A stretch of 64,000 bases of DNA from Anaerolineales bacterium (GCA_035446285.1 DAOMSJ010000001.1:298796-362795); one strand, 5' to 3'. Positions 16,992 to 50,684 are shown, counted from the stretch's first letter. Notes: generated by a model not told the origin, from the letters alone. A program made the numbers and translations.

Positions 16992-18359
16992 GTGTCCACA
17001 CCAGAATTCTCCACACACGTTCACCACGCGCTGCAAACTCTAGGCAAACGAGTCGTGCGCAATCCGCACATCGAGCGGCTGCTGTTTTATGAGCGCCTGT
17101 GCGCCCAGCCGGCGCGCAACGGCCGCGCCACTCCGCCCTCCGTAGAGCTGTTCCTGCGCCGCGCCCTGCGCGAGTTCCGCACTGAGCATGCCGAGCACGC
17201 CAAACTGCTCACGCGCCGCTTCCAGGAGCAAGAGACCGCCAAGGAAATTGCCCACAGCCAATCGATCAGCCAGGAGACGGTGAACCGCAACCAGCAGCGC
17301 GCCATCCGCCTGTTTGCTGGCTGGCTGCTGGAGCAGGAGCAGGCCGCGCAGCAACAGCGCCGCGCCGCTCTGTTGGCCAGCCTGCCACCGGCCAGCTTTG
17401 GTGCGCTGGTGGGCGTGGATGCGCTGCAGAAAAAGCTCACCGGCCTGTTGCGCCGCCCTGAGCTGCCGTGGGTGCTGTGTCTCAGCGGCATCGGTGGCAT
17501 CGGCAAGACATCACTCGTTAATCAAGCACTGCGCAACGTGTTGGACCCATCGCCCTACCGCGGCATCGTGTGGCTCACTGTGCCACACGATCAGCCCTTG
17601 ACCCAGCGCACCATGCTGGCTGAACTGAGCCGGCGTCTGTTGCCCCCCACCCTGCCCGCCAGCGAACGGTTGGCCGCGCTGCAGACACGCCTCAAGCAGC
17701 ACGCCCACCTCATCGTGCTGGACGATGTCAGCACTGAGCTGGATGACCCAGCCTGGGTGGATTGGCTGCACAGTTTCGCCAACCCCAGCCGCTTTGTGCT
17801 GTGCAGCCGCCAACTGCCCGCCACGCTGGCGCGCGCCTACCTGTTGCCCATGGGCGAGATGAACGCCAAGGCTGCGCTGGCGCTAATGAGTTACCAGGCG
17901 CGTGAAGTGGGGCTGGAGGAGAGCGTACCCGTGCTGCGCAAGCACGCCGCGGCGCTGTATGCGCGCACGGGCGGCAACCCGCTGGCGCTCAAGCTGGCCG
18001 TAGGCCTGCTACACAGCTGGCCCATCACCGCGATCCTGGAAGCGCTCGAAGAACGCAGCCAGCCAGACATCGCTGCACTGTATACCGCCATCTATCAGGC
18101 CAGTTGGCAGGCGCTGAGTGAAGATGGCCAGCGCTTGCTGCTGGCCATGCCGCTGGTGGCCGCCGAGGGCGCCAGCCTGGCGCAGCTGCGCGCCATCAGC
18201 GGGCTGGGGGCCGCCGCGCTGCGCAACGCCATTCGTGAGCTGCACACCCGCAGCCTGCTGGATGCCAGTGGCGAGGCTGGGGACAAGCGCTACAGCATTC
18301 ACCACCTGACGCGCAGCTTCGTGCGCCAACATATTTTGCGTACGCCACCACATTCTTGA
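16992..18359 (+). CDS. STAND NTPase: N-terminal sigma-70 region-4-like HTH fused to an NB-ARC ATPase
   Basis: HTH 'ETAKEIAHSQSISQETVNRNQQRAIRLFAGWL', P-loop 'LSGIGGIGKTSL', Walker B 'HLIVLDDV', 'GGNPLALKLA' (GLPL-like) and a winged-helix end 'YSIHHLTRSFV'. GTG start. Confidence 0.8.
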   Translation: MSTPEFSTHVHHALQTLGKRVVRNPHIERLLFYERLCAQPARNGRATPPSVELFLRRALREFRTEHAEHAKLLTRRFQEQETAKEIAHSQSISQETVNRNQQRAIRLFAGWLLEQEQAAQQQRRAALLASLPPASFGALVGVDALQKKLTGLLRRPELPWVLCLSGIGGIGKTSLVNQALRNVLDPSPYRGIVWLTVPHDQPLTQRTMLAELSRRLLPPTLPASERLAALQTRLKQHAHLIVLDDVSTELDDPAWVDWLHSFANPSRFVLCSRQLPATLARAYLLPMGEMNAKAALALMSYQAREVGLEESVPVLRKHAAALYARTGGNPLALKLAVGLLHSWPITAILEALEERSQPDIAALYTAIYQASWQALSEDGQRLLLAMPLVAAEGASLAQLRAISGLGAAALRNAIRELHTRSLLDASGEAGDKRYSIHHLTRSFVRQHILRTPPHS

Positions 18360-19408
18360 TGAAGAGTAACCGCCGCTGGGCGCGCCATGCTCATAGGGAA
18401 GCCATCCGCAACAATGTAGCTTTCTGGGCAGTGCAGCCTATCTCTACCCAACGCAATGACGCCAACAATGTGCATCTGGCCATCCAGCATGGCTTGAGGC
18501 TCAGCAGCACACGCACCAGCGCTGCACGTCTACTCGGCAGCAGCTTTAGCTTGGCGCAGGCACAGCCAGCCCACTGGCTGCCGCTGTATGCGCTAGCCAT
18601 GCGTAACACGCAACTGCCCAGCCGCCTGCGTGCTGAGCTGCACTATCAGCACGCCGCGCTGCTTTGGGTAGCCGGCAACCGCCCGCAGGCGGCTAGCGCC
18701 TTTCAGCGCGCGCTGCGCATGGCGCGCCAGTATGGCCACCCTGCTTTGCAAGCACGCAACCTGATAGGCCTGTGCCTGGTGCACTCGCAAGACCCTGTGC
18801 GCGCTAACAAAGCCGCCAATCAGCTCAGCCAACTTTTGCCCAGCATCCCGCCTGTTTTGCAGGCACACGCGCATGCAGCGCTGGGCTACGTGGCCTACTT
18901 TGCACGCCAGCATCACGCCGCCGCGCTGCACTTCGCCGCGGCGATCGATGCCGCGCCGCCCAGCGTGGCGCGCGGCCAGCTACACACACTGGCTGGGTTA
19001 AACGCACTGGCGCAAGACCTGCCCGCTGCAGCCCTAAAACACTACAACGCCGCAGCGCTGCTGTTGCAACGCCACCAAGCCGGCACCAGCCAACTGGCAC
19101 GTGTGGAGTTGCTGCGCGCCACGGCTCACTATCACAAGACTACGCGCGGCCAGCGCGTGCGCCTGCAACCGGCCATCGCCGCGCTGCAACGCGCCGCAGC
19201 CCTGCTGGCCCATAGCCACAGCGATGCCAGCAGCCGCAGTCACCTGGAGAGCCTGCTCGGCCGCGCCTACACGCGCAGCGGCGATGTGGCCAGCGGGCTG
19301 CGCTACCTGGCCAGCGCGCTGCAACTGTCCGAAGACGCCGGCGAACACGCCATGGCGGCAGACATCTTCGCGGCGCTGCAACAACTGGAAAACAAAAACC
19401 CCGCCTAG
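18359..19408 (+). CDS. TPR-like repeat protein, probable sensor/C-terminal module of the upstream STAND NTPase
   Basis: Ala/Leu-rich helical repeats (AASAFQRALRMARQYGHPALQARNL, AHAALGYVAYFARQHHAAALHF, LLGRAYTRSGDVASGLRYLASAL). The ATG at 18359 overlaps the upstream TGA (TGATG). Confidence 0.7.
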   Translation: MKSNRRWARHAHREAIRNNVAFWAVQPISTQRNDANNVHLAIQHGLRLSSTRTSAARLLGSSFSLAQAQPAHWLPLYALAMRNTQLPSRLRAELHYQHAALLWVAGNRPQAASAFQRALRMARQYGHPALQARNLIGLCLVHSQDPVRANKAANQLSQLLPSIPPVLQAHAHAALGYVAYFARQHHAAALHFAAAIDAAPPSVARGQLHTLAGLNALAQDLPAAALKHYNAAALLLQRHQAGTSQLARVELLRATAHYHKTTRGQRVRLQPAIAALQRAAALLAHSHSDASSRSHLESLLGRAYTRSGDVASGLRYLASALQLSEDAGEHAMAADIFAALQQLENKNPA

Positions 19409-19437: not shown

Positions 19438-20151
19438 CTAGGAGTTTTCGCGGCTGCCCAGGGTGCGCTCCAGGATGTCATCCATCTCATTGGAGCCAGC
19501 CTTGGCCTTGCGCGCCTTGCTCGACTGGTTGGCCGATTGCACTTCCTGCGCCTTGCGCCAGGCGATTTCCATGGCGGTGGGGATGGGGGTGTTGTCCTCT
19601 TCCTCCACCGCTTCCACTTCCGGCTCAGGTTCGGCCAACAGGGCTTTGATGCTCAGCTTGATCTGCTTCTTGCGGCGGTCAACATCCAAGACCTTGACTT
19701 CGATCTCGTCGCCAACCTTCACAGCCTCATCAGCCGAGCGCACATAGTCATGCGACATTTCGCTGATGTGCACCAGACCGGGGCGCTCAGCGCCAACCTC
19801 AACAAACGCGCCAAACTTCTCCAGCTTGGTGACCGTGCCTTTGAGCACGCTGTCTTTCTTGATCTCGCGCCATTCCAGCAGCAGAGGCTGGATCAGGGTC
19901 AGCTCAATGTGGCCGTCATTACCGATGCGGCGCACCCAGGCTTCAACTTCATCGCCCTCTTTGAGCACTTCTTCCACCTTGCGGACAGGCTCTTTACGCA
20001 GTTGTGAAATAGGAATCACAGCCGGCTTGGCTTGGCCAATATCTACTACTGCGCCGGCCAAGGTGGCCTTAATCACTTTACCTTTAACAGGGTCTTTCTT
20101 TTTGAGGCCAGTCTCTTGAGCAGTGGCCCCTTCAATATTTGCTTCAGACAT
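19438..20151 (-). CDS. S1 RNA-binding domain protein (two S1 domains, charged C-terminal tail)
   Basis: 'GKVIKATLAGAVVDIG' and 'GTVTKLEKFGAFVEVGAERPGLVHISE...GDEIEVKVLDVDRRKKQIKLSIK' are S1/OB-fold signatures. Confidence 0.85.
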   Translation of the reverse strand: MSEANIEGATAQETGLKKKDPVKGKVIKATLAGAVVDIGQAKPAVIPISQLRKEPVRKVEEVLKEGDEVEAWVRRIGNDGHIELTLIQPLLLEWREIKKDSVLKGTVTKLEKFGAFVEVGAERPGLVHISEMSHDYVRSADEAVKVGDEIEVKVLDVDRRKKQIKLSIKALLAEPEPEVEAVEEEDNTPIPTAMEIAWRKAQEVQSANQSSKARKAKAGSNEMDDILERTLGSRENS

Positions 20152-21508: not shown

Positions 21509-22534
21509 CTAAAAGACCACAACCTGGGTGCCGCGGCCAGTGGCCTGACGCTGGTTGGGTTGGCTGGCCGGCGTCACCCAGCGATACAGCCAGGCGGCGT
21601 GTTCTGGGCGCATATTGATGCAGCCCTTGCTCATTGGCGCGCCGAAATTGTTGTGCCAATAGGCGCCGTGGATGGCATAGCCGCCCTCGGCGAAGAAGCA
21701 AGCCCACGGCACCCCGGGCAGGTAGCGGTCACCCAAAGTATCCGTCAGGCGGTTGTCACCCATGTACTGGCTGGGCATCTTGGCATACAGATTGAAGTTT
21801 CCGGTGGGCGTCTGCGTAGGCAGGCCAGTGGAGCTGGTGTTGCGCACACCGGAGGAGATGGGCACGCGCAGCACCACAGTGCCATTTTCAAAGGCGGTGA
21901 GCTGCTGCGCCAGCAGCGAGACCTCGACGCGTTTCTGTCCGGCGGGCACATCCGGGCTGAGGGGAGTCAGATCCTCGGCCGGGATGGGCTGCAGGTGCTC
22001 GGCCTTGGCGTAATACTGCACATTGGTCCACGACTCGGTGATCTCGTACCACGGTGAGCCATCTGGCCCGTCTACCTTGGCGGTGACCCAGTGCATGCTG
22101 TCAAAGTACAGCAGGAACTGGTTCTGCACCTGCCAACCGCCTTGCCGCGAGTAGGTATAGGGCTGGCTGATGGGCACACTGATGCGGCACAGCATGCCCT
22201 CGGTGGGCACTTCATTTACAGGCGTGTTGCTGATCTCTTCTACGATCTGCACAAAGCTGCTGTGCACATATCCATCGGCGATCTTGAACCAGGTGGGGTT
22301 ATAGGCCGGGCCGCTGAAAGGATGCAGAGCTTGCTCGATGTGCACCAGCTCATCACGAAACAGCGTGCGCAGCGAGCTCAGGTTGATGCGCGGTTGGGCG
22401 AAGACGCTCGAGTCGTAGGTGACGCGGCCGAGCAGCCCTGCCGCCTGTTGGCTGGGCGCAGGCAGACGCCCGGCAGCCAATGCCGCCAGCGAAAGCCCAC
22501 TGAGCTTGAGGAAATCTCGGCGCGAAAGTGCCAT
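21509..22534 (-). CDS. Tat-exported L,D-transpeptidase (YkuD domain)
   Basis: Twin-arginine signal 'SRRDFLKLSGLSLAALAAG'. The catalytic block is 'GYAIHGAYWHNNFGAPMSKGCINM'. Confidence 0.85.
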   Translation of the reverse strand: MALSRRDFLKLSGLSLAALAAGRLPAPSQQAAGLLGRVTYDSSVFAQPRINLSSLRTLFRDELVHIEQALHPFSGPAYNPTWFKIADGYVHSSFVQIVEEISNTPVNEVPTEGMLCRISVPISQPYTYSRQGGWQVQNQFLLYFDSMHWVTAKVDGPDGSPWYEITESWTNVQYYAKAEHLQPIPAEDLTPLSPDVPAGQKRVEVSLLAQQLTAFENGTVVLRVPISSGVRNTSSTGLPTQTPTGNFNLYAKMPSQYMGDNRLTDTLGDRYLPGVPWACFFAEGGYAIHGAYWHNNFGAPMSKGCINMRPEHAAWLYRWVTPASQPNQRQATGRGTQVVVF

Positions 22535-22658: not shown

Positions 22659-24182
22659 ATGTTAGCCAGGGTCTACTCCTGCGCTGTGGTGGGTTTGGAT
22701 GGCGTAGTAGTAGAAGTAGAGGTGGATACACATCCTGGGCTCCCCAAAGTGGTCGTGGTGGGCTTGCCTGACGCGGCTATCCAGGAGAGCCGCGAGCGTG
22801 TTGCCTCGGCCATCAAGAATTCCGGCTTCGAATTCCCCCGCAACCACATCACCATCAACCTGGCTCCAGCCAGCGTGCGCAAAGCCGGCCCGGTGTATGA
22901 CCTGCCCATCGCCCTCGGCATCCTTGCCGCCAGCGGCCAGATCCCGGCCGCCGGGCTGCAGGGCTCGCTGACCCTGGGCGAGCTCTCGCTGGATGGCGCG
23001 GTGCGCCATGTGCGCGGCGTGCTGCCCATGGCGGCGCTGGCGCGACAGCAGGGCATGCGCACGCTGTACGTGCCCGCCGTGGATGCGGCCGAGGCAGCCC
23101 TGGTGCCGGATGTGGAGATCTTCCCCGTTGCTTCGCTCAGCCAACTCGCCGCTCACCTGCGCGGCGAGCACGCGCTGCACCCCTTCACCGCCGAGCCGCA
23201 CAGCACCGAAAGCGACGCGCCACCCGCGTATACCGACCTGCGCGAGGTCAAAGGCCAGGAGCAGGTCAAGCGCGCCCTCGAGGTGGCCGCGGCGGGCGGC
23301 CACAATCTGCTGATGAGCGGCGCACCGGGCGCGGGCAAGACGCTCATGGCGCGCGCCCTGCCCGGCATCCTGCCTGAGCTGAATTTAGACGAGGCGCTGG
23401 ATGTGACGCGCATCTATTCGGTCTCAGACAAGCTCAACGACAGCAGCCCGCTCATCCGCACGCGCCCGTTCCGCGCCCCGCACCACACCATCTCGCACGC
23501 TGGGCTGGTGGGCGGCGGCACCTGGCCGCAGCCCGGCGAAATCTCGCTGGCGCACCGCGGCGTGCTCTTCCTCGATGAGCTGGTGGAATTTGCGCCGCGC
23601 GTGCTGGAGGTGCTGCGCCAGCCCATCGAAGACAAGATCGTCACCATCAGCCGCGCTCAGGGTGCGCTGACTTTCCCCGCCAACTTTCAACTCGTCGGCG
23701 CCATGAACCCGTGCCCGTGTGGCTACTACGGTGACCCGTTGCGCGCCTGCACCTGCGCACCGGGCACGGTGACGCGCTACCAAAAGCGGCTCTCCGGCCC
23801 GCTGCTGGATCGTATCGACATCCACGTTGAAGTGCCACGTGTGGACTATGAGAAGCTCAGCGATGAACGCTTAGGCGAACCCTCCGCCGCCGTGCGGGCG
23901 CGTGTGGAGGCCGCCCGTCGCATCCAGCACACCCGCTTTGCAGGATTGCCCGCCCACACCAACGCCGATATGGGCGTGGCCGAGGTGCGCCGCTTCTGCG
24001 AGCTGGATGCCGATGGCCGCGCCCTGGTACGCGCCGCCATGGCGCAAATGCAGCTCACCGCACGCGCCTACCACCGCGTGCTCAAGCTGGCGCGCACCAT
24101 CGCCGACCTGGCGGGCGCGCAAAACGTAGCGCCCCAGCATTTGGCTGAGGCGCTACAGTACCGGGCACGGCTGGCCGTCTAG
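22659..24182 (+). CDS. comM: YifB/ComM family Mg-chelatase-like AAA+ ATPase
   Basis: N-terminal Lon-like 'VGLPDAAIQESRERV', Walker A 'GAPGAGKTLMA', 'GVLFLDELVEF', and a C-terminal Mg-chelatase subunit ChlI-like region. Confidence 0.9.
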   Translation: MLARVYSCAVVGLDGVVVEVEVDTHPGLPKVVVVGLPDAAIQESRERVASAIKNSGFEFPRNHITINLAPASVRKAGPVYDLPIALGILAASGQIPAAGLQGSLTLGELSLDGAVRHVRGVLPMAALARQQGMRTLYVPAVDAAEAALVPDVEIFPVASLSQLAAHLRGEHALHPFTAEPHSTESDAPPAYTDLREVKGQEQVKRALEVAAAGGHNLLMSGAPGAGKTLMARALPGILPELNLDEALDVTRIYSVSDKLNDSSPLIRTRPFRAPHHTISHAGLVGGGTWPQPGEISLAHRGVLFLDELVEFAPRVLEVLRQPIEDKIVTISRAQGALTFPANFQLVGAMNPCPCGYYGDPLRACTCAPGTVTRYQKRLSGPLLDRIDIHVEVPRVDYEKLSDERLGEPSAAVRARVEAARRIQHTRFAGLPAHTNADMGVAEVRRFCELDADGRALVRAAMAQMQLTARAYHRVLKLARTIADLAGAQNVAPQHLAEALQYRARLAV

Positions 24183-24207
24183 GCCACCAAGTGTGTAGGG
24201 CTGCTTT

Positions 24208-25809
24208 TTACTGGCTCACCACCAACCCAGTAGATTCAATGTACTCTTTACGCTCCTGCAAAAAGGTTCTTACGCTTTCAACTGCGGCAGCGTAGGTCTC
24301 TTCATCCACCAGGCTGCGCTCTGCGTTAGCAGCAAGTACTAAGCTGGCATATTCATCCACCTTCTCAACCAGAGCATCACTAGCAAAGACAGCATCGTAG
24401 ACCGCTTGCACATTGGCCTCATACAAGGCGCGGAAGGTGTCATTGGCAATGAAGCGGGTGAGCAGCGTGTTGCTGCCACCGCCCATTCCGCCGCCGCGTC
24501 CCATACCGCCACCAAAACCACCCTGCTGATTGGTTAGATCCAGGCTGTAGCTCACATTACCGCCTAGCTTGCTCAGGCTTTCATTGGTGTCCCACAGCAG
24601 CACTGTGATCTGCTCGGTCTGCTCCTCATAGTAGAGGTAGTAGTTGTTGTTCATACCCAACATGGAGTCGGTGTTAACCAACACGGCATTCACCGCCAGG
24701 TAATTGGCAAAACCCTCCACATCCAGGTACGTTGGCAGTTCGGCTTCAAAGGTTGCATCATCAGCCTCATCCAGAAAACGCATAAAATCAATCAACGGTT
24801 TCATATCGGCATCATTCACGCGCGTCTCTTGCGTAAAGCTGTTGGCATAGCTACTCGGCTCCTCACCTGAGTAGCTCAGGGTGGCGCCAACATCGGCCTT
24901 GTACAGCACACCCAGGGTGCCGGGGAAACGCTTGGCCAGGTAACTCTCATCCACCAGCTCAGAGACAACATACAGCCGCTCTGCTTCATCATTGAGGCTA
25001 AAGCCCGTAAAGACAGTCTCGGTGGCCGCCAGGCCAGCCAGGGTGGCGGCATAGTTGCTGATCGGCTCCTGCAGCATGGCTTCATCGTAGGAGGTGCCGT
25101 AATTGCGAACAGCAATGGCGCTGTAGCCTTGATAGGTTTGGCCATCCACATACTCATCGAACTTGATCATGAAGGGGATCTTGATCAGCTCTTCTGATAT
25201 CTGGCCGCGCCCCATCCCCATCCCACCCTCAAAGTTGCCTTGCATCCCGCCCTGCGGGAAGCCTCCAAAACCCTGGGCGCCTTCCCCCTCAGCGTCTTGA
25301 GGCGGCTCGAAGCCTGCGGGCGGCTGGAAACCGCCGCGCATACCTTCGGGTGCTTCGCCTTCGCCGAATGGCGGCAGCTCACCGCTTGGCAACTGCATGT
25401 CCCCTGGCGCCCCATCGGCAAGGGCGCCAAAACCTTCGCCGCCTCCGCCGCCTAGCGCGGTGCGCAGGGAAGCATTGCCGCGCAGGCGAATGCCCACATC
25501 ATTGATGCGCACGCCGTCAATGATCACATCGGCCTCAAAGTACTCCTTCAGCCCAGTTTCCTGATAGGTGGTGAGCATGCTCTCATAGTCCGCATCAGAC
25601 ATCAGCACCTGGATCTCGTGCACCACACCATCATCAAACAGGGCGACTGTGTTAGTTACATCATTCTCTCCGGCAGTTGACAACCGCGTAGACACCGATG
25701 TGGTGTAGGCAATCACGCGCTGGCTGCCCAGCACGAACACTAATGCTGCAGCCAAGATCGTCATCAGCACCAACAAGGGTATGTTACGTTTCAAGGTTAG
25801 GCTCATCAT
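24208..25809 (-). CDS. CotH-family atypical kinase, membrane-anchored/extracytoplasmic, with Gly-rich low-complexity inserts
   Basis: N-terminal TM 'IPLLVLMTILAAALVFVLG'. CotH blocks are 'IIDGVRINDVGIRLRGNASL', 'GTLGVLYKAD' and 'NNNYYLYYEE...LLWDTNESL'. Confidence 0.8.
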   Translation of the reverse strand: MMSLTLKRNIPLLVLMTILAAALVFVLGSQRVIAYTTSVSTRLSTAGENDVTNTVALFDDGVVHEIQVLMSDADYESMLTTYQETGLKEYFEADVIIDGVRINDVGIRLRGNASLRTALGGGGGEGFGALADGAPGDMQLPSGELPPFGEGEAPEGMRGGFQPPAGFEPPQDAEGEGAQGFGGFPQGGMQGNFEGGMGMGRGQISEELIKIPFMIKFDEYVDGQTYQGYSAIAVRNYGTSYDEAMLQEPISNYAATLAGLAATETVFTGFSLNDEAERLYVVSELVDESYLAKRFPGTLGVLYKADVGATLSYSGEEPSSYANSFTQETRVNDADMKPLIDFMRFLDEADDATFEAELPTYLDVEGFANYLAVNAVLVNTDSMLGMNNNYYLYYEEQTEQITVLLWDTNESLSKLGGNVSYSLDLTNQQGGFGGGMGRGGGMGGGSNTLLTRFIANDTFRALYEANVQAVYDAVFASDALVEKVDEYASLVLAANAERSLVDEETYAAAVESVRTFLQERKEYIESTGLVVSQ

Positions 25810-25820
25810 GTGCTCCTTCT

Positions 25821-25867
25821 CACAGGCGGGCGGTCAAGGCAACTTTTCCTTGGCCGCCCTGCCTGTG
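25821..25867 (-). promoter_or_regulatory. intercistronic stem-loop just upstream of the CotH ribosome-binding site
   Basis: cacaggcgggcggtcaagg (25821-25839) pairs with cttggccgccctgcctgtg (25849-25867), with one bulge and one mismatch. On the mRNA it ends 3 nt before AAGGAG. There is no U-tract. Confidence 0.45.
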
Positions 25868-25875
25868 CTCATTGT

Positions 25876-26556
25876 CTAGAGATCAGTGGTGTTGTAGCCA
25901 GCAATCAAGGAGATCTTGTTGTCTTCATTGAGCTTACGCAGCTCAGACACAAATTCCTCGACGCGGTTGGACTTCTTTAACCCTACGCTATAGGTCAGCT
26001 CAGTCAGTTTGCCGTTGTTGACAGTGTCAACGCTGATTAGCTCAGCGCTGTGGGTGTACTTCAAGAACAACGCGTCAAACAGCTTGTCAAACGCCGCACC
26101 GCTGGGCACCTGAATGCGGAGGATCTGCCCGGCGGCTTCACGCGCAAACCAGTTGAAGCGCATCATCATCACCACCACCAGGCTGATAATTACAGCAGCC
26201 ACAATGGCGAGCAGATAGAAGCGCGTACCGATAGCCATACCAATGGCCATGGTGAAGAAGATGAAGCCAACATCGCGCGTTTCCTTGACCGCATTGCGGA
26301 AGCGGATGATGGAAAGCGCGCCGACCAGGGAGAAGGCCCGCGCAATGTTCGACCCAACCACCATCATCACCAGCGCCACCACCATGCCATTGAGCACTAG
26401 TGTGAAAACGAAGCTTTGCGTGTACGAGGTGCCGCGGTGGGTAAGTTTGTAGATCCAACCGATAAAGGCGCTCAGCACAAAGCTAAGAACGAGCACCAGA
26501 GTGACATCCAACACGGAGAATTCTCCGGTCAGGTCTTGAAAATTGAAGATATCCAT
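25876..26556 (-). CDS. DUF4956-type membrane protein
   Basis: Four or five TM segments with the family hallmark 'ARAFSLVGALSIIRFRNAVKETRDVGFIFFTMAIGMAIG', plus a soluble C-terminal domain. Confidence 0.8.
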   Translation of the reverse strand: MDIFNFQDLTGEFSVLDVTLVLVLSFVLSAFIGWIYKLTHRGTSYTQSFVFTLVLNGMVVALVMMVVGSNIARAFSLVGALSIIRFRNAVKETRDVGFIFFTMAIGMAIGTRFYLLAIVAAVIISLVVVMMMRFNWFAREAAGQILRIQVPSGAAFDKLFDALFLKYTHSAELISVDTVNNGKLTELTYSVGLKKSNRVEEFVSELRKLNEDNKISLIAGYNTTDL

Positions 26557-26578
26557 TGTGTGTTACTCCTTCGTTTGA

Positions 26579-27346
26579 TTAGTGCGCAGCGAGCGCAAGT
26601 TGGGGGAAGGCCGGCACGTTGGCATTGGCCAGATCAATGCTGCGGCAGTACTTGCTTACACGCACAGTTTTGAGATTGTGTGCGGCGATCATGTCGGCCA
26701 GCCAGTACGGCAGGCGCTCATTCACTTTGATTTCCATCACGGCACGGTTGGGCGAGAGCATTGGCAGCGTGGCGGCATCCTGCAGGCGCAACTGGTGCAC
26801 CTGGTAGCCCAGCTGTGTGTCAAAGGTGACGCGCAGCCCCAGGTCATACTCAGCGCCCATAAAGGCCTGGCGTTGGTAGCGCACAATGCTCACGGGGTGC
26901 AGGTTGTACTCCCACAGATACGAGTACACCTCTGACACCACAGCTTCATCTTCGGCGGCCACGGTACTGGGCAGCTCACGCCGGTTACACAACGCCAGTG
27001 CTTCGCCATAGGGCATGAGTACGCGCCGCTTCTGCGTGACGCGGTCAAGGCGCTGCTTGATCTCTACGAAAACAGGGGTGGCCGCGGTAAGCACAGTGTT
27101 GTCTTCATAACGGCGGATGCGCAGCTTGCGGCGGAAGCGAATGCCATCCACCTTTTCCCAATAGCAGCGCAAATCCGGCGAGTCGTAATACAGGCTGGAG
27201 AGCCCATAGCTACCCATGCTGTGCTCATCCGCTTGTAGGTACTTGCGCAAGGCGGCCTTGAAAACTTCGGCTTGGCGCAAGCTAACCAAGTACTTGAGCT
27301 CAAAACGGTTGAAACGACGAATGGTGTGACTGAGATTTTTGGCCAT
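26579..27346 (-). CDS. VTC-domain (polyphosphate polymerase-like, triphosphate-tunnel fold) protein
   Basis: 'RFNRFELKYLV', 'LSSLYYDSPDLRCYWEKVDGIRFRRKLRIRRYE' and 'AVMEIKVNERLPYWL' match bacterial VTC-domain proteins. Confidence 0.8.
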   Translation of the reverse strand: MAKNLSHTIRRFNRFELKYLVSLRQAEVFKAALRKYLQADEHSMGSYGLSSLYYDSPDLRCYWEKVDGIRFRRKLRIRRYEDNTVLTAATPVFVEIKQRLDRVTQKRRVLMPYGEALALCNRRELPSTVAAEDEAVVSEVYSYLWEYNLHPVSIVRYQRQAFMGAEYDLGLRVTFDTQLGYQVHQLRLQDAATLPMLSPNRAVMEIKVNERLPYWLADMIAAHNLKTVRVSKYCRSIDLANANVPAFPQLALAAH

Positions 27347-27391
27347 ACTTTTTTCCTAAACAAGTTGATGGCCGTAGTCTAAAAAACAGCC

Positions 27392-27463
27392 CTGTGAGAT
27401 GGCTGAAAACCTGCTGTGAATTGGCTGTGAGAGCACACAAACGAAGGCTCTGTGAATCTGCTG
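27392..27463. promoter_or_regulatory. phased CTGTGA-type direct repeats in the divergent VTC / response-regulator intergenic region
   Basis: CTGTGA occurs at 27392, 27414, 27425 and 27450. Three extended 14-mers are ctgtgagatggctg, ctgtgaattggctg and ctgtgaatctgctg. Two of the spacings are 22 and 11 bp. Confidence 0.45.
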
Positions 27464-27530
27464 AGAAACCCACTTTGCGCCTATACAGGTTGACGGGTTT
27501 CAAGCAAACTATCTATAAACGAGTGGACCT

Positions 27531-28208
27531 ATGCATACCGTATTGATCGTGGATGATGACCCTAAGCTGCTGAAGATGTTGCAGCGCACGCTGACCTATG
27601 AGACCCTCAACGTGGTCACGGCGGCCAACGGCTTAGAGGCGCTGCCACTGGTGCAAACGCACAAACCCAACCTGATCATTGCTGATTGGATGATGCCCAA
27701 GATGAACGGCGTGACCTTTGTGCAGCGCCTGCGTGCCGAAGACAATAAAACGATGGTGCTGATGCTCACCGCGCGCGATGCCATCGAAGACCGCGTCATG
27801 GGCCTCGAGGGTGGCGCCGACGATTATCTGGCTAAGCCCTTTGCCCCCGCTGAGCTGGTGGCCCGCGTGCACGCCCTGCTGCGCCGCGTGCAAGCCGAAC
27901 CTCAAAACCAGCCAGCCAGCTATGCAGACATCACGCTCGACCCTGTGACGCGCCAGGCCCAACGCGGCGATACCGAGCTAAGCCTCACCCTGACCGAGTT
28001 CAACTTGCTGCACCTGCTGTTGCGCCACCCGCGCCAGGTGCTGGAACGCAGCCGCATTCTGAGTGAAATATGGGGCTACGATTTTGGCGGCAATGACAAT
28101 GTGCTTGAGATCTATATCGGCTACCTGCGCAAAAAGTTGGAAGCCGATGGCCGCCCGCGCCTCATCCAAACTGTGCGCGGCGTGGGCTACGTACTGCGCG
28201 AGGAATAA
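27531..28208 (+). CDS. OmpR/PhoB-family response regulator
   Basis: Receiver 'VLIVDDDPKLL...IIADWMMPKMNG...MLTARD...GADDYLAKPF'. The winged helix is 'LTEFNLLHLLLRHPRQVL...IYIGYLRKKLE'. Confidence 0.92.
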   Translation: MHTVLIVDDDPKLLKMLQRTLTYETLNVVTAANGLEALPLVQTHKPNLIIADWMMPKMNGVTFVQRLRAEDNKTMVLMLTARDAIEDRVMGLEGGADDYLAKPFAPAELVARVHALLRRVQAEPQNQPASYADITLDPVTRQAQRGDTELSLTLTEFNLLHLLLRHPRQVLERSRILSEIWGYDFGGNDNVLEIYIGYLRKKLEADGRPRLIQTVRGVGYVLREE

Positions 28209-29650
28209 TGTCTATTCGCCTGCGCATCACCATCCTCTACACAGCCATCCTGGCGCTCACCTTGTGCATTTTTGGGGCAGTGTTGTACTTCATCCAGGCG
28301 CAGTCCACGTTGGACTCGCTGCGCAGCGACTTGCTTTCCAGCGCTATGCGCCTCGGCGAAGCGGTGGCACGCAGCAGCCAAATGCCCCACAGCCAGCCAC
28401 CGCTGGGCGGCATCCAGACACCGCCGCTGCCTTTTGGAGAATTCTCCAATGAACAGGCATTTCAAAGTTTCCCCGAGCGTGAAATTGCCCGCGTGCTGGA
28501 TGCGCAAGGCCGCTTGGTAGCCAGCCCCTTCGGCCGCGAAGGGGATGCACTGCCACTAAGCGCTGAAGGATTGCAAGCCTTGCAAGATGGGCAGGAGTGG
28601 TGGGAAACCAGTGATGTGGCTGGGGAACCGATGCTGATCTATAGCCGTCCCATCGTGGTGGATGATGAGTTTATGTCCATCATTCAAGTCGCCACCAGCC
28701 TGGCCGAGCGCAGCCATTCACTACGCACCCTGGCAACCACTGTGCTGGGCGCAGGCTTGCTCATCGTCATCATCGCCTTCGGCGTAGGCTGGGTGTTCTC
28801 CGGCGCCATGTTGGCCCCCATCCAACGCATCACGCTCACCGCGCAGGCGATTGGTGATGAGCAGGATTTCACCCACCGCGTGAACTACGTCGGCCCGCAA
28901 GATGAAGTTGGTCTATTGGCTAACACGTTTAACTCCATGCTTTCCCGTCTGCAGAATGCCTTCCAGCGGGTGGAGCACTCGCTACAGATGCAACGCGAGT
29001 TTGTCGCCGATATCTCACATGAGCTGCGCACTCCACTCACCACACTGCGCGGCAACCTCAGCCTGCTACGGCGTAACCCGCCTATGCCCAGCGAGGAACG
29101 CGAAGACATCCTCAACGATCTCATTGATGAAAATGACCGCCTCATTCGCCTGGTGAACGATCTACTCCTCCTGGCCCGTGCAGACGCCGGGCGTGAGCTG
29201 GCCAGGGATGCGCTGGATGCTGGTGAGCTGCTCAAGGATGTGACGCGTCAGGCCCAGGTGCTCGATCCCGAGCGCTCGATTCGTCTGCAAGTGCCAGAAA
29301 GACTTACGATGCTTGGCGACCGCGATGCCCTCAAGCAGATTTTGCTCATCGCTGTGGAGAACGCCATCAAGCATTCGCACGGGGAAATCAGCGTGGCGGC
29401 TGAACTTAAGCAAGATACCGTTGAGATACGTGTTCAGGACCGCGGGCAGGGTATTGCAGCTGATCAGTTGCCGCACATTTTTGGCCGTTTCTACCGCGCC
29501 GAGGGGTCTGAAGCCGCCACGGGCTTTGGCCTCGGGCTTGCGATAGCCAAGACCCTGGTTGAAAAGCAGTCTGGCCATATAAAAATGAAGAGCGAGCCTG
29601 GGCAGGGAAGCACTCTCATCTTGCAGTTTCCTATGCAGCCTCAGCTCTAG
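28208..29650 (+). CDS. sensor histidine kinase (2 TM, HAMP, HisKA, HATPase_c)
   Basis: 'FVADISHELRTPLTTL' is the H-box, and 'QDRGQGIA...GFGLGLAIAKTLVEKQSGHI' gives the N/G boxes. The ATG overlaps the regulator's TAA (TAATG). Confidence 0.9.
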   Translation: MSIRLRITILYTAILALTLCIFGAVLYFIQAQSTLDSLRSDLLSSAMRLGEAVARSSQMPHSQPPLGGIQTPPLPFGEFSNEQAFQSFPEREIARVLDAQGRLVASPFGREGDALPLSAEGLQALQDGQEWWETSDVAGEPMLIYSRPIVVDDEFMSIIQVATSLAERSHSLRTLATTVLGAGLLIVIIAFGVGWVFSGAMLAPIQRITLTAQAIGDEQDFTHRVNYVGPQDEVGLLANTFNSMLSRLQNAFQRVEHSLQMQREFVADISHELRTPLTTLRGNLSLLRRNPPMPSEEREDILNDLIDENDRLIRLVNDLLLLARADAGRELARDALDAGELLKDVTRQAQVLDPERSIRLQVPERLTMLGDRDALKQILLIAVENAIKHSHGEISVAAELKQDTVEIRVQDRGQGIAADQLPHIFGRFYRAEGSEAATGFGLGLAIAKTLVEKQSGHIKMKSEPGQGSTLILQFPMQPQL

Positions 29651-29687: not shown

Positions 29688-30077
29688 ATGTCTAAACAAA
29701 CCGTCTACGCCCCCAAAGGCATCAAGCCCATGGGCCCCTACACCCCCGCCATCCGCATGGGTGACCTGCTGTTCATCTCGGGCCAGGTGGGCATTGACCC
29801 TGAAAGCGGCAAGTTCGTTGAAGGCGGCGTTACTGCCCAGGCCACCCAGGTGCTCGAGAACCTTAAGGGCCTGGTCGAGGCCGGTGGCAGCTCGATGGAC
29901 AAGGTGCTCAAGACCACCATGTTCCTCACCGATATTGCCGACTTTGCTGCCGTGAATGAGATCTACGCAACCTACTTCGCCAGCGAGCCGCCCGCCCGCT
30001 CCACCATCCAGGTGGCGGCACTACCCGGTGGCGCCCTGGTGGAGATCGAAGCGATTGCTTCGGTGAGCAGTAATTAG
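29688..30077 (+). CDS. ridA: RidA/YjgF-family reactive-intermediate deaminase
   Basis: 129 aa, 'GPYTPAIRMGDLLFISGQVGIDPESG...PARSTIQVAALPGGALVEIEAIA'. Confidence 0.9.
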   Translation: MSKQTVYAPKGIKPMGPYTPAIRMGDLLFISGQVGIDPESGKFVEGGVTAQATQVLENLKGLVEAGGSSMDKVLKTTMFLTDIADFAAVNEIYATYFASEPPARSTIQVAALPGGALVEIEAIASVSSN

Positions 30078-30121
30078 GGAGTAGTGCAAAGGAAAATCCT
30101 CACCTCCACGGCTATTCCGAT

Positions 30122-31153
30122 ATGACACCGGTGGTCAGCATCATCGTTCCCTGCTTCAATGAAGAGGCCACCATTGGTGGCCTTCTTGAAGCCATCCTGG
30201 CCCAAAGCACACCCGCTGAGCAGATGGAAGTGGTCATCGCCGATGGACTGTCCACAGACCGCACGCGTGAGCGTATCGCCGCCTTCAGCCAGCAGCACCC
30301 GCAGCTGGCGGTGCACGTGGTCGACAATCACGCCCGCCGCATTCCGCACGGGCTCAACCTAGCCATCGCCGCGGCGCAGGGCAGCACGCTGCTGCGCCTC
30401 GACGCACACTCCAGCCCGCACCACGAGTACGTGGCGCGCAGTCTGCAAACGCTGGATGAGGGCAAGGGCTGGAACGTGGGCGGTGTGTGGGAAGTGCGCC
30501 CGGGCAAAGAGACCTGGCTGGCGCGCGCCATTGCCCAGGCCGCCAGCCACCCCTTTGGCGTGGGCGATGCGCGCTACCGCTACACGACCCAAGCCGGCGC
30601 GGTGGACACGGTGCCTTTCGGCAGCTTCCGCCGCGAGCTGATCAAGACCATCGGCGCTTTTGACGAGACGCTCGAAACCAACGAAGACTATGAGTTCAAT
30701 GCCCGCGTTCGCCTGGCGGGCGGCACGGTGTGGCTGGACCCCGCCATTCGCTCGGTCTACTATGCCCGCCCCACGCTGGCGGCGCTGGCACGCCAATATT
30801 GGCGCTACGGGTACTGGAAGTGGCGCATGCTGCGCCGCTACCCCAGCACCCTGCGCCCGCGCCAGGCCATTCCGCCCCTGTTTGTGCTCGGCCTGCTCGG
30901 CCTGAGCCTGCTGAGTGTGTTCTGGACGCCCGCTGTGTGGCTCCTGGGGGCCGGGGTGGTATCATACGCACTGCTCTTACTGGCGGCTGCGGCACAAAAA
31001 GCGCTGCACCTGCGGCAGCCCAGCCTGCTGGTTGGCATGCCCCTGGCGATGATCACCATGCACCTGAGCTGGGGTAGCGCCTTTCTGTGGAGCTTGCTGA
31101 CATCGTTGGTCAATCCTCCACGCACACACGTAAATGGCACAACTGCGATCTAA
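30122..31153 (+). CDS. family-2 glycosyltransferase with C-terminal TM helices
   Basis: 'VSIIVPCFNEEATIGGLLEAILAQ', 'ADGLSTDRT' and 'RLDAHS'. The C-terminal 100 aa are hydrophobic. Confidence 0.85.
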   Translation: MTPVVSIIVPCFNEEATIGGLLEAILAQSTPAEQMEVVIADGLSTDRTRERIAAFSQQHPQLAVHVVDNHARRIPHGLNLAIAAAQGSTLLRLDAHSSPHHEYVARSLQTLDEGKGWNVGGVWEVRPGKETWLARAIAQAASHPFGVGDARYRYTTQAGAVDTVPFGSFRRELIKTIGAFDETLETNEDYEFNARVRLAGGTVWLDPAIRSVYYARPTLAALARQYWRYGYWKWRMLRRYPSTLRPRQAIPPLFVLGLLGLSLLSVFWTPAVWLLGAGVVSYALLLLAAAAQKALHLRQPSLLVGMPLAMITMHLSWGSAFLWSLLTSLVNPPRTHVNGTTAI

Positions 31154-32564
31154 AGACTCCACCAGCCTGCGCCTGGGCCTAAGCGAACGCCGTGTATTGC
31201 TGGCCCTGGGCGATCTGGTCGTGGCCGCCGTGGCGCTGGCCGTGGCTCTGTATTTCTGGGTTATCGCCGTTGGCTCGCTCAATACACTGCAAGTCATTGA
31301 ATTCCTGCAAGAGCGCCCGCCCGATTGGTTCTACTTCCTGCCCGTCATCTGGGTGGTGCTGCTCTTCGAAACCTACGACCCCCACCGTGCCTCCAGTTGG
31401 CATCATACGCGCAACAGTTTGCTGGTTGCCGCAGCACTGGGCATGAGCTTCTACATCATTTATTACTTTGCGGCCGACCCTGGCACCCTGCCGCGCCGTG
31501 CCATTGCCGTTTTTGCCGTCACGGCCTTGCTGCTCACCACCCTGTGGCGTTTGCTCTACATTCGCATCTTCACCTCGCTGCAATTTGCACGCCGCGCGGT
31601 AGTAGTGGGCGCCGGCCGCGCCGGAGAAGCACTGCTGCGCGTCATCGGCGAAATGCGCCCGGCCCCGTATCAGATCGTAGCCTTGCTGGATGATGACCCT
31701 GACAAAATCGGTAGCACGATCAGCGGGCATGAAGTCATCGGCGGCAGCGAACGGCTTTCCAGCTTGATTGAAGAAGAAGCTGTTACCGATATCCTGGTGG
31801 CCATCTCCGGCCAGATGCGTGAGAACACCTTCCACGCCCTATTGGATGCGCAAGAAGGCAGCGCCGAGATCATGCGCATGCCCACCGCCTACGAAGAGCT
31901 GCTGGGCCGCGTACCCATCAACTATTTGGAAGCTGATTGGATGGTGCGCTCCTTTGTGGATGACACTCGCGTCAATCACTTCTACCAATTGGGCAAACGC
32001 TTGTTTGACATTTTAGGTGGCCTGGTGGGCGTGGCGATTCTGCTTGTGCTCACTCCCATAGTTGCCATTCTGACCCTCATTGACACCGGCTGGCCGCTGA
32101 TCTTCTCGCAGACCCGCGCTGGCAAGGGTGGCAAGCCTTATCGCATCATCAAGTTCCGCACCATGCGCGTGGATGCTGAGAAAGATGGCAACCCGCAACT
32201 GGCCAAAGAAGATGACGAGCGCACCACGCGTCTGGGCAAAATTCTGCGCAAGACGCGCATCGACGAATGGCCGCAGTTTATCAACGTGCTGCGTGGCGAC
32301 ATGAGCCTGGTTGGCCCGCGCCCGGAGCGCCCTGAGCTGATGGAGCACTTTGAGCGCCGCATCCCCTTCTATCGTGCGCGTTTGCTGGAGCGCCCCGGCA
32401 TCACCGGCTGGGCGCAGGTGAACTACGGCTATGCCGCCACCATCGAAGAGATGAGCATCAAGCTGGAGTACGACCTGTACTACATCAAGCACCGCGGCCC
32501 CATCCTGGATTTGATCATTATTCTGCGTACCCTGGCCACCGTCTTCGGCTTCCGGGGGCGTTAA
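31134..32564 (+). CDS. polyprenyl-phosphate glycosylphosphotransferase (WbaP/EPS-initiating sugar transferase type)
   Basis: N-terminal TM bundle, a central Rossmann-like 'RRAVVVGAGRAGEAL', and a C-terminal bacterial sugar-transferase domain 'KRLFDILGG...KFRTM...DERTTRLGKILRKTRIDEWPQFINVLRGDMSLVGPRPERP'. Confidence 0.88.
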   Translation: MAQLRSKDSTSLRLGLSERRVLLALGDLVVAAVALAVALYFWVIAVGSLNTLQVIEFLQERPPDWFYFLPVIWVVLLFETYDPHRASSWHHTRNSLLVAAALGMSFYIIYYFAADPGTLPRRAIAVFAVTALLLTTLWRLLYIRIFTSLQFARRAVVVGAGRAGEALLRVIGEMRPAPYQIVALLDDDPDKIGSTISGHEVIGGSERLSSLIEEEAVTDILVAISGQMRENTFHALLDAQEGSAEIMRMPTAYEELLGRVPINYLEADWMVRSFVDDTRVNHFYQLGKRLFDILGGLVGVAILLVLTPIVAILTLIDTGWPLIFSQTRAGKGGKPYRIIKFRTMRVDAEKDGNPQLAKEDDERTTRLGKILRKTRIDEWPQFINVLRGDMSLVGPRPERPELMEHFERRIPFYRARLLERPGITGWAQVNYGYAATIEEMSIKLEYDLYYIKHRGPILDLIIILRTLATVFGFRGR

Positions 32565-33469
32565 GTGACCAAGGTACTCGTTACCGGCGGGGCGGGCTTC
32601 ATCGGCTCGCATCTCGTCAAAGCCCTGTTGCAACGCGGCGATAGCGTGCGCGTGTTGGATGATTTTTCCAGCAGCACCCGCAACCACGTCCCCGCAGAGG
32701 CAGAGCTCATTGAAGGCAAAATACAAGACCCCGCCGCGGCGGCCAAAGCCGTTGCCGGCGTGGAGTTTGTCTTTCACCAAGCGGCCTTCATTTCCGTTCC
32801 CGAATCCATTGAGAACCCTGCCGCCTGCTGGTCCAGCAATGTGGATGGCACCCTCGCCATCCTGGCGGCCGCGCACAAAGCAGCTTGCCGCGGCGTGGTG
32901 CTGGCCTCCAGCGCCGCTGTGTATGGCGACAGCCAGGCGCTGCCGCTGGCTGAGGACGCGGGTGCCAAGTGCCTCTCTCCGTATGCTGCATCCAAGTATT
33001 TCAATGAAACGCTGGCGCAACTGTACACGCTGACTTACGGCCTGCCGGTGACGGCTTTGCGCTATTTCAACGTCTTCGGCCCCGGCCAATCCCCGACCTC
33101 GGCCTATGCTGCTGCTGTGCCCAAGTTCATCGCCGCGCTCGCCGCTGGTGAGGCGCCAACGATTTTCGGTGACGGCACGCAAGGCCGCGATTTCATCTTT
33201 GTGGGCGATGTCGTACGCGCCAACCTGCTGGCCGCTGAAGCCAACAGTGGCGGCGCGTTCAACGTGTGCACAGGCCAGGAGACCACCCTGCTTGACCTGC
33301 TGGCGGCGCTGTATCCCCTGTTCCCCAACGCGCCGCAGGCCACCCACGCCGCCCCACGCCTGGGCGATGTGCACCGTTCACTGGGCGATCCGCAGGCGGC
33401 ACACGCCGCCCTCGGCTTCCGCGCCGAGACGCCGCTGGCCGAAGGACTGCGCCAGATCGTGGAGGCCGC

Positions 33470-33473
<4 letters not shown>
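32565..33473 (+). CDS. NAD-dependent sugar-nucleotide epimerase/dehydratase (SDR family)
   Basis: 'KVLVTGGAGFIGSHL', 'SSAAVYG' and 'YAASKY' (YxxxK). The GTG start follows the upstream TAA directly. Confidence 0.88.
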
Positions 33474-35352
<1,879 letters not shown>

Positions 35353-35353
<1 letters not shown>

Positions 35354-36456: not shown

Positions 36457-36536
36457 TTCTTCTAATCGTTAATTAGCTAATCAAAGATTGTCTGTTAGTC
36501 TGTCAGTCTTTCGCCAAGCCGTTATACGAGTACTGT

Positions 36537-49903: not shown

Positions 49904-49985
49904 GTTGTGTTTGCCAGTAGCCCTGGCACACGCGCTACTGCCCGTTTTGCCAGCGGAGCCTTGCGCTAACGCAAAAGCAACAACC

Positions 49986-50684
49986 TCAGTCTGCCAGTTG
50001 GGTCTTGCGTGTACGCACGAGCGTCAGCGCCTCTTCCAGCACCTCGGCGGCCTGCATACCATCCGAGATCAGGGTGATGGCATCTTCGGCGGCGCGCAGG
50101 GGCGCAACTTCGCGGCTGCTGTCAAAGGCATCGCGCTGCTTGAGAGACTCTAGCACTTCCGCGTAGCTCGTGCTGTCGCCGCGCGCCTGCAATTCCTCAA
50201 AGCGGCGCTGGGCACGCTCTTCCTGCGATGCGGTGAGGAATATCTTGGGGTCAGCTTCGGGCAGCACCACCGTGCCGATGTCGCGCCCGGCCATCACCAC
50301 GCTGCCGCGCAAGCCGATGCGGCGCTGCTGCTCAGTGAGCGCGGTGCGCACCCCTGGATAGGCAGACACTTGCGACACATGCGCTTCCACATCCGGCGTG
50401 CGCAGCTCCCAGGTGCAATCCACGTCATCCAGCAGCACGTCATACAAGCGCCCATCGTCTTTGCTGGGCGGGCGCAGATCAATGCTCACCTCGCGGGCCA
50501 ACGCTTCCACGGCTGCCTGGTCATCGATGTTCATGTTGCGTTGCAGGGCAGCCAGGGTGACGGCGCGGTACATCGCCCCGGTATCGAAATACAAGTAACC
50601 CAGAGAATCGGCCAGGCTTTTGGCAAGCGTGGACTTTCCCGAGGCGACCGGGCCGTCAATAGCGATGGTGAGTTCTTTAGACAT
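49986..50684 (-). CDS. cmk: cytidylate kinase
   Basis: 'IAIDGPVASGKSTLAKSLA..LGYLYFDTGAMYRAV', 232 aa. Confidence 0.93.
   Translation of the reverse strand: MSKELTIAIDGPVASGKSTLAKSLADSLGYLYFDTGAMYRAVTLAALQRNMNIDDQAAVEALAREVSIDLRPPSKDDGRLYDVLLDDVDCTWELRTPDVEAHVSQVSAYPGVRTALTEQQRRIGLRGSVVMAGRDIGTVVLPEADPKIFLTASQEERAQRRFEELQARGDSTSYAEVLESLKQRDAFDSSREVAPLRAAEDAITLISDGMQAAEVLEEALTLVRTRKTQLAD

Follow-up and report, generated by a model that had tools for sequence, protein, structure and literature searches.

A putative VTC-type polyphosphate operon with a membrane partner, an exported CotH-family protein, and a divergent two-component system in an Anaerolineales bacterium

Polyphosphate (polyP) synthesis in bacteria is usually treated as the business of PPK1 and PPK2, and the VTC polymerase as a eukaryotic enzyme (e.g., the introduction of PMC13318637). 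In the yeast VTC complex, a basic path leads from the exit of the catalytic tunnel into a basic channel, and the lumen-positive potential drives the transfer of polyP (PMC9911596). Bacterial relatives have been met in another setting: cotH, a poly-phosphate polymerase gene, and a DUF4956 gene (with or without DUF4832) form a contiguous accessory set in the pel operons of streptococci, clostridia, and bifidobacteria (Whitfield et al. 2020, PMC7112168), and VTC-domain and CotH genes are listed together in Clostridium perfringens NELoc-2. Here we describe the same three families at positions 24208-27346 of a 64,000-nucleotide stretch of DNA from an Anaerolineales bacterium (GCA_035446285.1 DAOMSJ010000001.1:298796-362795; hereafter, the window), where they form an operon of their own facing a two-component system. 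By analogy with yeast, the operon may encode a VTC-like module that synthesizes polyP and exports it to an extracytoplasmic effector, a reading to which we assign a probability of roughly 0.4.

The association has been studied genetically in Streptococcus intermedius (SIR_1592-1594), where deletion of the DUF4956 or CotH homologue cut aggregation in artificial sputum medium by more than half and altered Pel levels; the DUF4956 homologue was described as an MgtC-type transmembrane domain followed by an intracellular ACT domain, and the authors found no three-gene synteny outside Pel loci (PMC12345266). An earlier note on the window, made from its sequence alone, had held that the association recurs in bacterial annotations without a demonstrated function. 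Recurrence is amply borne out below, but the genes are not wholly unstudied, given the effect of the S. intermedius deletions on Pel-dependent aggregation. Three-gene synteny without pel is seen at the present locus and at about 150 related loci, being common in Chloroflexota, Actinomycetota, and metagenomic lineages.

All three genes lie on the minus strand, close-packed in the order VTC-DUF4956-CotH. The first (26579-27346) encodes a soluble, 255 amino acid VTC-domain triphosphate-tunnel protein, a putative Vtc4-like polyP polymerase; the second (25876-26556) a 226 amino acid DUF4956 membrane protein; and the third (24208-25809) a 533 amino acid CotH-family kinase. The intergenic gaps are exactly 22 and 66 nt. 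These coordinates agree with those of the earlier note, and the peptides it quoted were found where it had placed them: RFNRFELKYLV and RRKLRIRRYE in the VTC protein, and GALSIIRFRNAVKETRDVGF in the DUF4956 protein. Its domain calls were likewise upheld by a hidden Markov model search of Pfam, which returned PF09359 (VTC; E = 4.4e-48, 164.3 bits against a cut-off of 23, spanning residues 13-238), PF16316 (DUF4956; E = 1.3e-18, 67.8 bits against a gathering score of 30.6), and PF08757 (CotH; E = 7.5e-47), all far over their gathering scores. A Shine-Dalgarno-like AGGA/AAGGAG precedes each gene, and the three genes are one operon. Between the DUF4956 and CotH genes, the transcript is predicted to fold into a hairpin (25821-25867, minus strand; minimum free energy -34.5 kcal/mol, z = -5.5, none of 200 shuffled sequences being as stable). 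It has no U-tail, and a terminator-pattern scan gave no match there; it is possibly a processing, stability, or attenuation element. The same gap gave z < -3 in six of 21 relatives, with hairpins that differ in sequence (e.g., loci L005, L032, and L080), and their presence at the equivalent place in some relatives may mean that the CotH part of the transcript differs from the rest in expression or stability. An Rfam search of 23500-28500 gave zero matches. Among Anaerolineae, with near-identical strain-level matches set aside, identity falls from 77-81% for DUF4956 through 63-73% for VTC to 47-62% for CotH, a gradient to be expected if a core machine carries a surface part that evolves faster.

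How constant the unit is was judged from two sets of loci. A scan of one genome per species yielded 399 loci, of which the best 80, every one from Chloroflexota, made up the first set; the second set comprised 80 metagenomic loci obtained with an alignment of a distant VTC subfamily. DUF4956 immediately follows VTC in 74 of the 76 Chloroflexota loci with sufficient flank, and of 55 metagenomic loci, 52 have the pair. The adjacency is not due to chance, and the three families co-localize across phyla, as the proposal in the earlier note required. The third gene is another matter. Forty-nine Chloroflexota loci had long flanks, and these contained CotH alone (20), Cthe_2159 alone (16), both (8), neither (4), or Cthe_2159 without DUF4956 (1), giving totals of 28 for CotH and 25 for Cthe_2159; a same-strand gene of one or other family lies beside the pair in 45/49. 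The triad proposed in the earlier note must consequently be divided: VTC and DUF4956 are near-obligate partners, but CotH, present in 28/49 loci, is not a fixed member. The Cthe_2159 partner is a ~600 amino acid lipoprotein of the beta-helix carbohydrate-binding family PF14262 (E ~1e-100), and all such proteins inspected start with a lipoprotein-type signal; it lies next to VTC-DUF4956 in, for example, L012, L016, L019, L036, L048, L046, L077, and L085, and is absent from the window. The two partner families were told apart by Pfam and a score threshold; the Chloroflexota CotH profile gives low-score false matches on Cthe_2159 through common G/P-rich low-complexity stretches.

In the metagenome set, the commonest same-strand neighbor family is again CotH, often as a ~950 amino acid protein that also carries LTD and Fn3-associated domains; neighbors of the PMT_2, Porin_O_P, and PPDK_N families occur as well. 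Genes of Porin_O_P, a phosphate-selective-porin family, flank the pair at L147:5375-7021, L149:6505-7806, and L160:500-1624. Large proteins with a PPDK_N dikinase-type ATP-binding domain flank it at L147:238-3108 and L158:5093-7390, and small DUF3108-like lipoprotein genes at L149:5804-6508 and L158:9447-10145; lineages with such neighbors are presumably diderm. Two further loci were matches in a plasmid collection, both in chromosome-sized unannotated records whose ORFs (open reading frames) were read directly: in Paenibacillus cellulosilyticus, regulator and kinase genes diverge from VTC-DUF4956-Cthe_2159, and Nonomuraea gerenzanensis has VTC-DUF4956-CotH. The module is therefore built on a VTC-DUF4956 core, to which a third gene adds one of several alternative exported or envelope proteins.

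The VTC protein has no hydrophobic segment over its 255 residues, in keeping with the cytoplasmic, soluble enzyme that had been predicted. VTC is a large family (5,849 clusters at 50% identity), nearly all members being stand-alone proteins of 240-280 amino acids. A single-sequence search against PDB sequences was not significant (E = 0.22), and a family profile was needed to reach Vtc4: one built from 50 diverse bacterial stand-alone homologues matched the catalytic domain of yeast Vtc4 over its full length (E = 3.7e-23), and matched the inactive Vtc2 and Vtc3 domains more weakly and only partially (1e-13 to 1e-9). In the profile alignment, R14, K18, R76, R78, K97, and Y157 correspond to Vtc4 R196, K200, R264, R266, K281, and Y359, and R159, R172, E205, K207, S231, and K232 to R361, R373, E426, K428, S457, and K458. 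All 12 are invariant or nearly so across the 50 homologues, K18 being present in at least 90%. In Vtc4, R264, R266, and E426 as well as K458 are essential (PMC4641920, PMC9911596). The tunnel's catalytic residues, whose loss the earlier note had named as an objection to its proposal, are therefore in place (K18, R76, R78, K97, R159, R172, E205, and K232). Hydrolase-type tunnel enzymes build a second metal site from four glutamates, where Vtc4 has basic residues instead, and Lys-458 is specific to the Vtc4 polymerase mechanism (Martinez et al. 2015, PMC4641920). At the four glutamate positions, as mapped by profile alignment rather than structure, the present protein has three basic residues (R14, K97, and K207), and the fourth is E16. 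Because three of the four are basic and the Lys-458 equivalent is kept, the protein is polymerase-like rather than hydrolase-like in sequence, which favors a polymerase, without proof; we consider polyP synthesis by this protein to be somewhat more likely than not.

The DUF4956 protein carries hydrophobic stretches over residues ~9-138. Its AlphaFold2 model, at a predicted local distance difference test score (pLDDT) of just 53, which is too poor for any conclusion on a pore, places five helices at 15-39, 45-67, 69-87, 94-108, and 114-133, followed by a C-terminal beta-alpha-beta-beta-alpha-beta unit at 144-218; at that level of secondary structure, it matches the multi-spanning protein of four to five transmembrane helices described in the earlier note. 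Foldseek matched only the C-terminal ~90 residues, to generic ferredoxin/ACT/PII/CutA-like folds and never below E = 1e-3, and this domain layout agrees with the MgtC-plus-ACT description of the S. intermedius homologue. The MgtC match is sub-threshold in Pfam (23.1 bits versus 31.4), as is that to the NCBIfam MgtC/SapB model (E = 2.3e-5, a score of 24 against a cut-off of 214); by these scores, the protein is a DUF4956 member and merely a distant MgtC/SapB/YhiD relative. When lineages with as little as 33% identity are compared, conservation is highest in a block at residues 68-114, GSNxARAFxLVGALSxxRFRNAxKxxRD...GMAxGTxFY, which contains R73, R85, R87, K91, and R94. By the positive-inside rule, we infer that the basic loop of this block and the C-terminal domain face the cytoplasm.

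The CotH protein was modeled with a pLDDT of 74.8, and the best Foldseek match is Bacillus cereus CotH (5JD9; E = 2e-16, TM 0.83). The single N-terminal transmembrane helix predicted earlier is seen as a lone hydrophobic segment (~6-36, preceded by K7/R8) that would act as a signal-anchor; an alignment of this protein with 120 homologues has a hydrophobic N-terminus in 121/121. The catalytic and metal-binding Asp residues of B. subtilis CotH, D228 and D251 (D224/D247 in the B. cereus structure), have their counterparts here in D381 (NTD motif) and D407 (WD motif), the D381 assignment requiring a three-residue gap to be moved relative to the HMMER alignment; both counterparts are invariant in 33 homologues. 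The protein looks like an active phosphotransferase exposed outside the membrane. A disordered, G/E/P-rich insert (~123-207) interrupts the N-lobe of the kinase. Similar G/P/M/E-rich low-complexity stretches are shared by the exported partners, occurring in CotH (~123-207 and 428-446) and at the C-termini of Cthe_2159 proteins (e.g., GGFGGGMGRGGGMGGG and GGMPPGGGGGMPPGG; a Cthe_2159 example lies in L012, just upstream of position 10001); that in CotH sits within the kinase N-lobe, not at a terminus.

The earlier account of the locus was right about its three genes but overlooked a divergent two-component system and the promoter boxes lying between it and the operon. A direct-repeat search found four hexamer boxes at 27393-27431 (minus strand), CTCACA N5 TTCACA N5 TTTTCA N5 CTCACA, with an 11-bp period and overlapping the -35 position of the operon promoter. 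A -10-like hexamer, TAGACT (27376-27381, minus strand), was read from the sequence 11 nt downstream of the last box, and its position is conserved in relatives. An exact match to the pair pattern identified an extra pair, TTCTCA N5 TTCACA (27451-27467, minus strand), closer to the regulator gene. The pattern TTCWCA-N5-TTCWCA has three matches in the 64-kb window against 0.48 expected, and all three fall within the operon-regulator intergenic region, where a pattern scan found no sigma-70 -35/-10 consensus promoter. Many distant Chloroflexota loci have this layout upstream of VTC, with TAGAAT at its end, even where Cthe_2159 is upstream, and a high-GC lineage has an equivalent arrangement with CTCTCA/TTCTCA boxes; loci with the conserved promoter lie among L004-L083 and include L133, L138, and L152. 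By its layout, the operon promoter is of an activator-dependent type with PhoB/PhoP-type geometry, the boxes standing in place of a -35.

The divergent genes encode an OmpR/PhoB-family response regulator (27531-28208, plus strand; Pfam Response_reg and Trans_reg_C), which probably binds the boxes, and a sensor histidine kinase (28208-29650, plus strand; Pfam HAMP, HisKA, and HATPase_c) whose gene overlaps that of the regulator by one base. With the NCBIfam PhoB model, the regulator scores 213.9 bits, short of the cut-off of 296.2; the NblR and MtrA models match it equally well, also below their cut-offs. The kinase is likewise under the cut-offs of the WalK, heavy-metal, MtrB, and PhoR models, and Pfam found no PAS domain in it. 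Its N-terminus has a hydrophobic stretch, ~150 residues without a domain match, and a second hydrophobic stretch; membrane spans and an external sensor domain were read from this by eye rather than computed. In 36 of 51 Chloroflexota loci, a homologue of the regulator is encoded no more than 5 kb from VTC; it is also divergent from VTC in the Paenibacillus locus (L085) and in L138/L152. In relatives, box pairs of opposite orientation adjoin the divergent regulator gene, suggesting autoregulation; overall, the arrangement suggests a dedicated, autoregulated two-component system. A copper or heavy-metal system, considered because of CusRS-like NCBIfam matches and Met/Gly-rich stretches, was rejected: the scores are sub-cut-off, and the boxes are direct repeats, whereas CusR/CopR boxes are palindromic. 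The VTC-type operon is thus real, conserved, and regulated.

What the operon does can be pictured by analogy with yeast. The VTC protein would polymerize polyP from ATP on the inner surface of the membrane, and the growing chain would pass to a DUF4956 oligomer by way of the conserved basic loop of that protein on the cytoplasmic side (R73, R85, R87, K91, and R94). The inside-negative membrane potential would help to push the chain outwards, with the same topology as in yeast, where VTC delivers polyP into the vacuole lumen. Since the bacterial exterior is the electrical equivalent of that lumen, export would be favored and import not, and an outward direction would explain the exported or envelope nature of the third gene. 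Outside, the exported partner would bind, anchor, or use the polymer; where that partner is CotH, the polymer could be a phosphoryl donor for an envelope or matrix substrate. Transcription would start at the activator-dependent promoter, with the phosphorylated regulator most likely binding the boxes and the regulator's own promoter carrying the same boxes.

Several observations weigh against this scheme. Porin_O_P relatives and Pho-box-like promoters classically belong to phosphate uptake under starvation, the opposite direction, and the closest relatives of DUF4956, the MgtC proteins, are known as regulators rather than transporters. Similarity between the DUF4956 protein and the DUF202 helices of the yeast channel was not detected, and the AlphaFold2 model of the membrane part is unreliable at its pLDDT of 53. 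Because the protein is unrelated to DUF202 and distantly MgtC/YhiD-like, with a ferredoxin/ACT-like domain in the cytoplasm, it can be called a channel by analogy only, and we hold translocation by DUF4956 only tentatively, at somewhat below even odds. For the enzyme, bacterial VTC proteins retain E16 of an ExExK-type motif where Vtc4 has Thr, and biochemical activity of any bacterial VTC-domain protein was not found in the published literature. The third gene varies, and four of the 49 Chloroflexota loci have no exported partner. Finally, deletion of the VTC homologue of S. intermedius had no reported effect, unlike the DUF4956 and CotH deletions (PMC12345266), a poor fit to a simple linear pathway.

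A bolder form of the proposal holds that this is a second, PPK-independent, VTC-type bacterial polyP synthase, with export through DUF4956 supplying surface proteins, including a CotH that uses polyP rather than ATP; in that form, some lineages of the metagenome set would perhaps extrude the polymer through a Porin_O_P-type outer-membrane protein. We regard this version as unlikely, and the use of polyP by CotH, taken on its own, as doubtful. CotH is present in 28/49 Chloroflexota loci and the partner is interchangeable, so that supplying CotH with polyP as its phosphoryl donor cannot be the general purpose of the VTC-DUF4956 core; with partners that range from a kinase fold to a beta-helix or porin, the use by CotH suggested in the earlier note is at most one use of the polymer.

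The alternative that survives best is homeostasis of membrane-tethered cytoplasmic polyP (or of phosphate or Mg2+). VTC would make or trim polyP inside and nothing would cross the membrane; the MgtC-like DUF4956 protein would regulate or anchor the enzyme, its ACT-like domain sensing a metabolite, and CotH or Cthe_2159 would merely be co-regulated in an envelope response. The distant MgtC/YhiD likeness and the ferredoxin/ACT-like C-terminal domain suit this explanation well, as do the loci that lack an exported partner (4/49), the differing phenotypes of the VTC and DUF4956 deletions in S. intermedius, and the discussion of MgtC members as regulators of phosphate metabolism (quoted in PMC12345266). 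It leaves unexplained, however, why an exported-protein gene is co-transcribed in 45 of 49 loci and why Porin_O_P genes replace it in some loci of the second set, and PPK1 and PPK2 already serve bacteria for cytoplasmic polyP; we judge it somewhat unlikely.

Other tunnel chemistry was also considered: the VTC protein might be a (tri)polyphosphatase or a nucleotide cyclase, or make another phospho-polymer or signal, and the module would then be unrelated to polyP export. Near-identical tunnel centers do support very different activities, and AtTTM3 is Vtc4-like yet a tripolyphosphatase (PMC4641920); the E16 retained in the bacterial family points the same way. The match to Vtc4 is, however, longer and far stronger than that to the inactive Vtc2/Vtc3 domains, and both the Lys-458 equivalent and the three of four basic substitutions are kept, so that this explanation appears quite unlikely.

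Uptake of external polyP would reverse the direction, with a partner or porin capturing the polymer, DUF4956 threading it inwards, VTC consuming it by the reverse reaction or by hydrolysis, and a phosphate-starvation-type regulator inducing the genes. The hexamers and their 11-bp phasing are like those of the Pho boxes in PhoB/PhoP regulons, PhoB is the best, albeit sub-cut-off, NCBIfam match of the regulator, three metagenomic loci (L147, L149, and L160) have Porin_O_P genes beside the pair, and microbial uptake of external polyP is an open question (PMC13318637). Yet the inside-negative potential opposes import of a polyanion, and neither a binding-protein/ABC system nor another energized importer is encoded at the locus. 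The tunnel residues are of the polymerase type, without the second metal site of hydrolases, the kinase has no PAS domain of the kind typical of PhoR, and a kinase-fold partner has no obvious role in uptake; we rate uptake as very unlikely. Chance or lineage-specific synteny without a functional link is refuted by the comparative data, as the pairing and its partner recur, with varying flanking genes, in Chloroflexota, Bacillota (Paenibacillus, and streptococci and clostridia from the literature), Actinomycetota (Nonomuraea, and bifidobacteria from the literature), and unclassified metagenomic lineages.

If the operon does make and export polyP, a working bacterial VTC polymerase joined to a membrane conduit would give bacteria a new way to make the polymer and a first mechanism to put it outside the cell, as well as a possible source of phosphoryl donor for extracytoplasmic kinase-fold proteins. 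It could bear on the biofilm matrix, on cation binding, and on host interaction, and its relevance would be broad, because the VTC family occurs in gut, oral, and pathogenic bacteria (streptococcal pel loci and C. perfringens NELoc-2). Experiments could start from the obligate VTC-DUF4956 pair, from the swappable exported partners, or from the defined boxes of the dedicated two-component system.

Within ~10 kb, the operon is flanked on one side by the two-component system, RidA, GT2, Bac_transf, epimerase, and FemAB genes, and on the other by YifB, YkuD, and MFS genes. The polysaccharide-type cluster beyond the kinase gene (~29688-36500, plus strand; 101-6869 of L001, reversed) contains RidA, GT2, Bac_transf, two epimerase/dehydratase genes, and FemAB, and its synteny with the operon is confined to the closest relatives (L004-L006 and L008). 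Two genes downstream of the operon is a YkuD-type L,D-transpeptidase gene with a weak twin-arginine signal match (21509-22534, minus strand), which adjoins an MFS transporter gene, and this YkuD-MFS synteny is retained in the same close relatives. Farther away, at ~17055-19408 (17149-19502 of L001, reversed), a 434 amino acid NB-ARC (STAND NTPase) protein is followed by a 349 amino acid protein without a Pfam match, possibly a defense or signaling pair; it adjoins a gene for an S1-domain protein (19438-20151). Over 48001-62000, ~14 kb, AT skew is steadily positive (0.18-0.28), far over the rest of the window, which points to at least one very long gene or to a segment of distinct composition on one strand.

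PPK1 and PPK2, the accepted bacterial polyP synthases, would yield the same product from ATP, but their folds are unrelated and they have no dedicated membrane protein or exported partner. The MgtC/SapB/YhiD proteins share weak similarity with DUF4956 over the membrane part and the C-terminal domain, with helices followed by a small beta-alpha-beta-beta-alpha-beta domain; DUF4956, however, falls under the cut-offs of that family, has its own conserved basic loop motif, and has VTC as an obligate neighbor. Bacillus CotH (PDB 5JD9/5JDA) has the same fold (TM 0.83) and the two catalytic Asp residues at ~15% identity, but works in the mother-cell cytoplasm, whereas the protein here is predicted to be signal-anchored and outward-facing, with a ~90-residue insert in its N-lobe. 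The host (Chloroflexota/Anaerolineales, as the names of homologues also indicate) is not a Bacillus-type spore-former, and no CotB/CotG-like substrate genes were seen; a spore-coat role in a mother-cell cytoplasm was rejected on the grounds of the host and of the N-terminal signal-anchor conserved in 121/121 sequences. As in Pho-box promoters, direct hexamers at an 11-bp period replace the -35 upstream of a -10 and the regulator is of the OmpR family; unlike those systems, the regulator and kinase are under the PhoB/PhoR cut-offs, the kinase lacks PAS, and no pst or pho genes are nearby.

Two further comparisons are those with which we began. Yeast VTC has the same Pfam tunnel domain and catalytic residues, a cytoplasmic enzyme coupled with a membrane protein, and a far side that is electrically positive. 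Here, however, there is no SPX or DUF202 domain, and the enzyme is separate and soluble, not fused to a membrane domain. The membrane partner is a predicted five-helix DUF4956 protein with an ACT-like domain rather than the three-helix DUF202, E16 stands at the tunnel mouth in place of the Thr of Vtc4, a two-component system takes the place of control by inositol pyrophosphates, and the exported kinase or beta-helix partner has no yeast counterpart. The Pel accessory cluster shares the three contiguous families, a CotH predicted to be secreted, and a DUF4956 protein of MgtC-like transmembrane and ACT parts; the present operon, by contrast, stands alone with its own two-component system and box promoter and differs in having the order VTC-DUF4956-CotH, and identity with the Pel cluster was rejected, the pel families and the DUF4832 hydrolase being absent within ~10 kb. 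The gene association is therefore already known, in the pel context and without a mechanism; what is new is that it stands alone under two-component control, that its core is an obligate pair of genes joined by alternative partners, and that it has promoter boxes and a polymerase-like pattern of residues.

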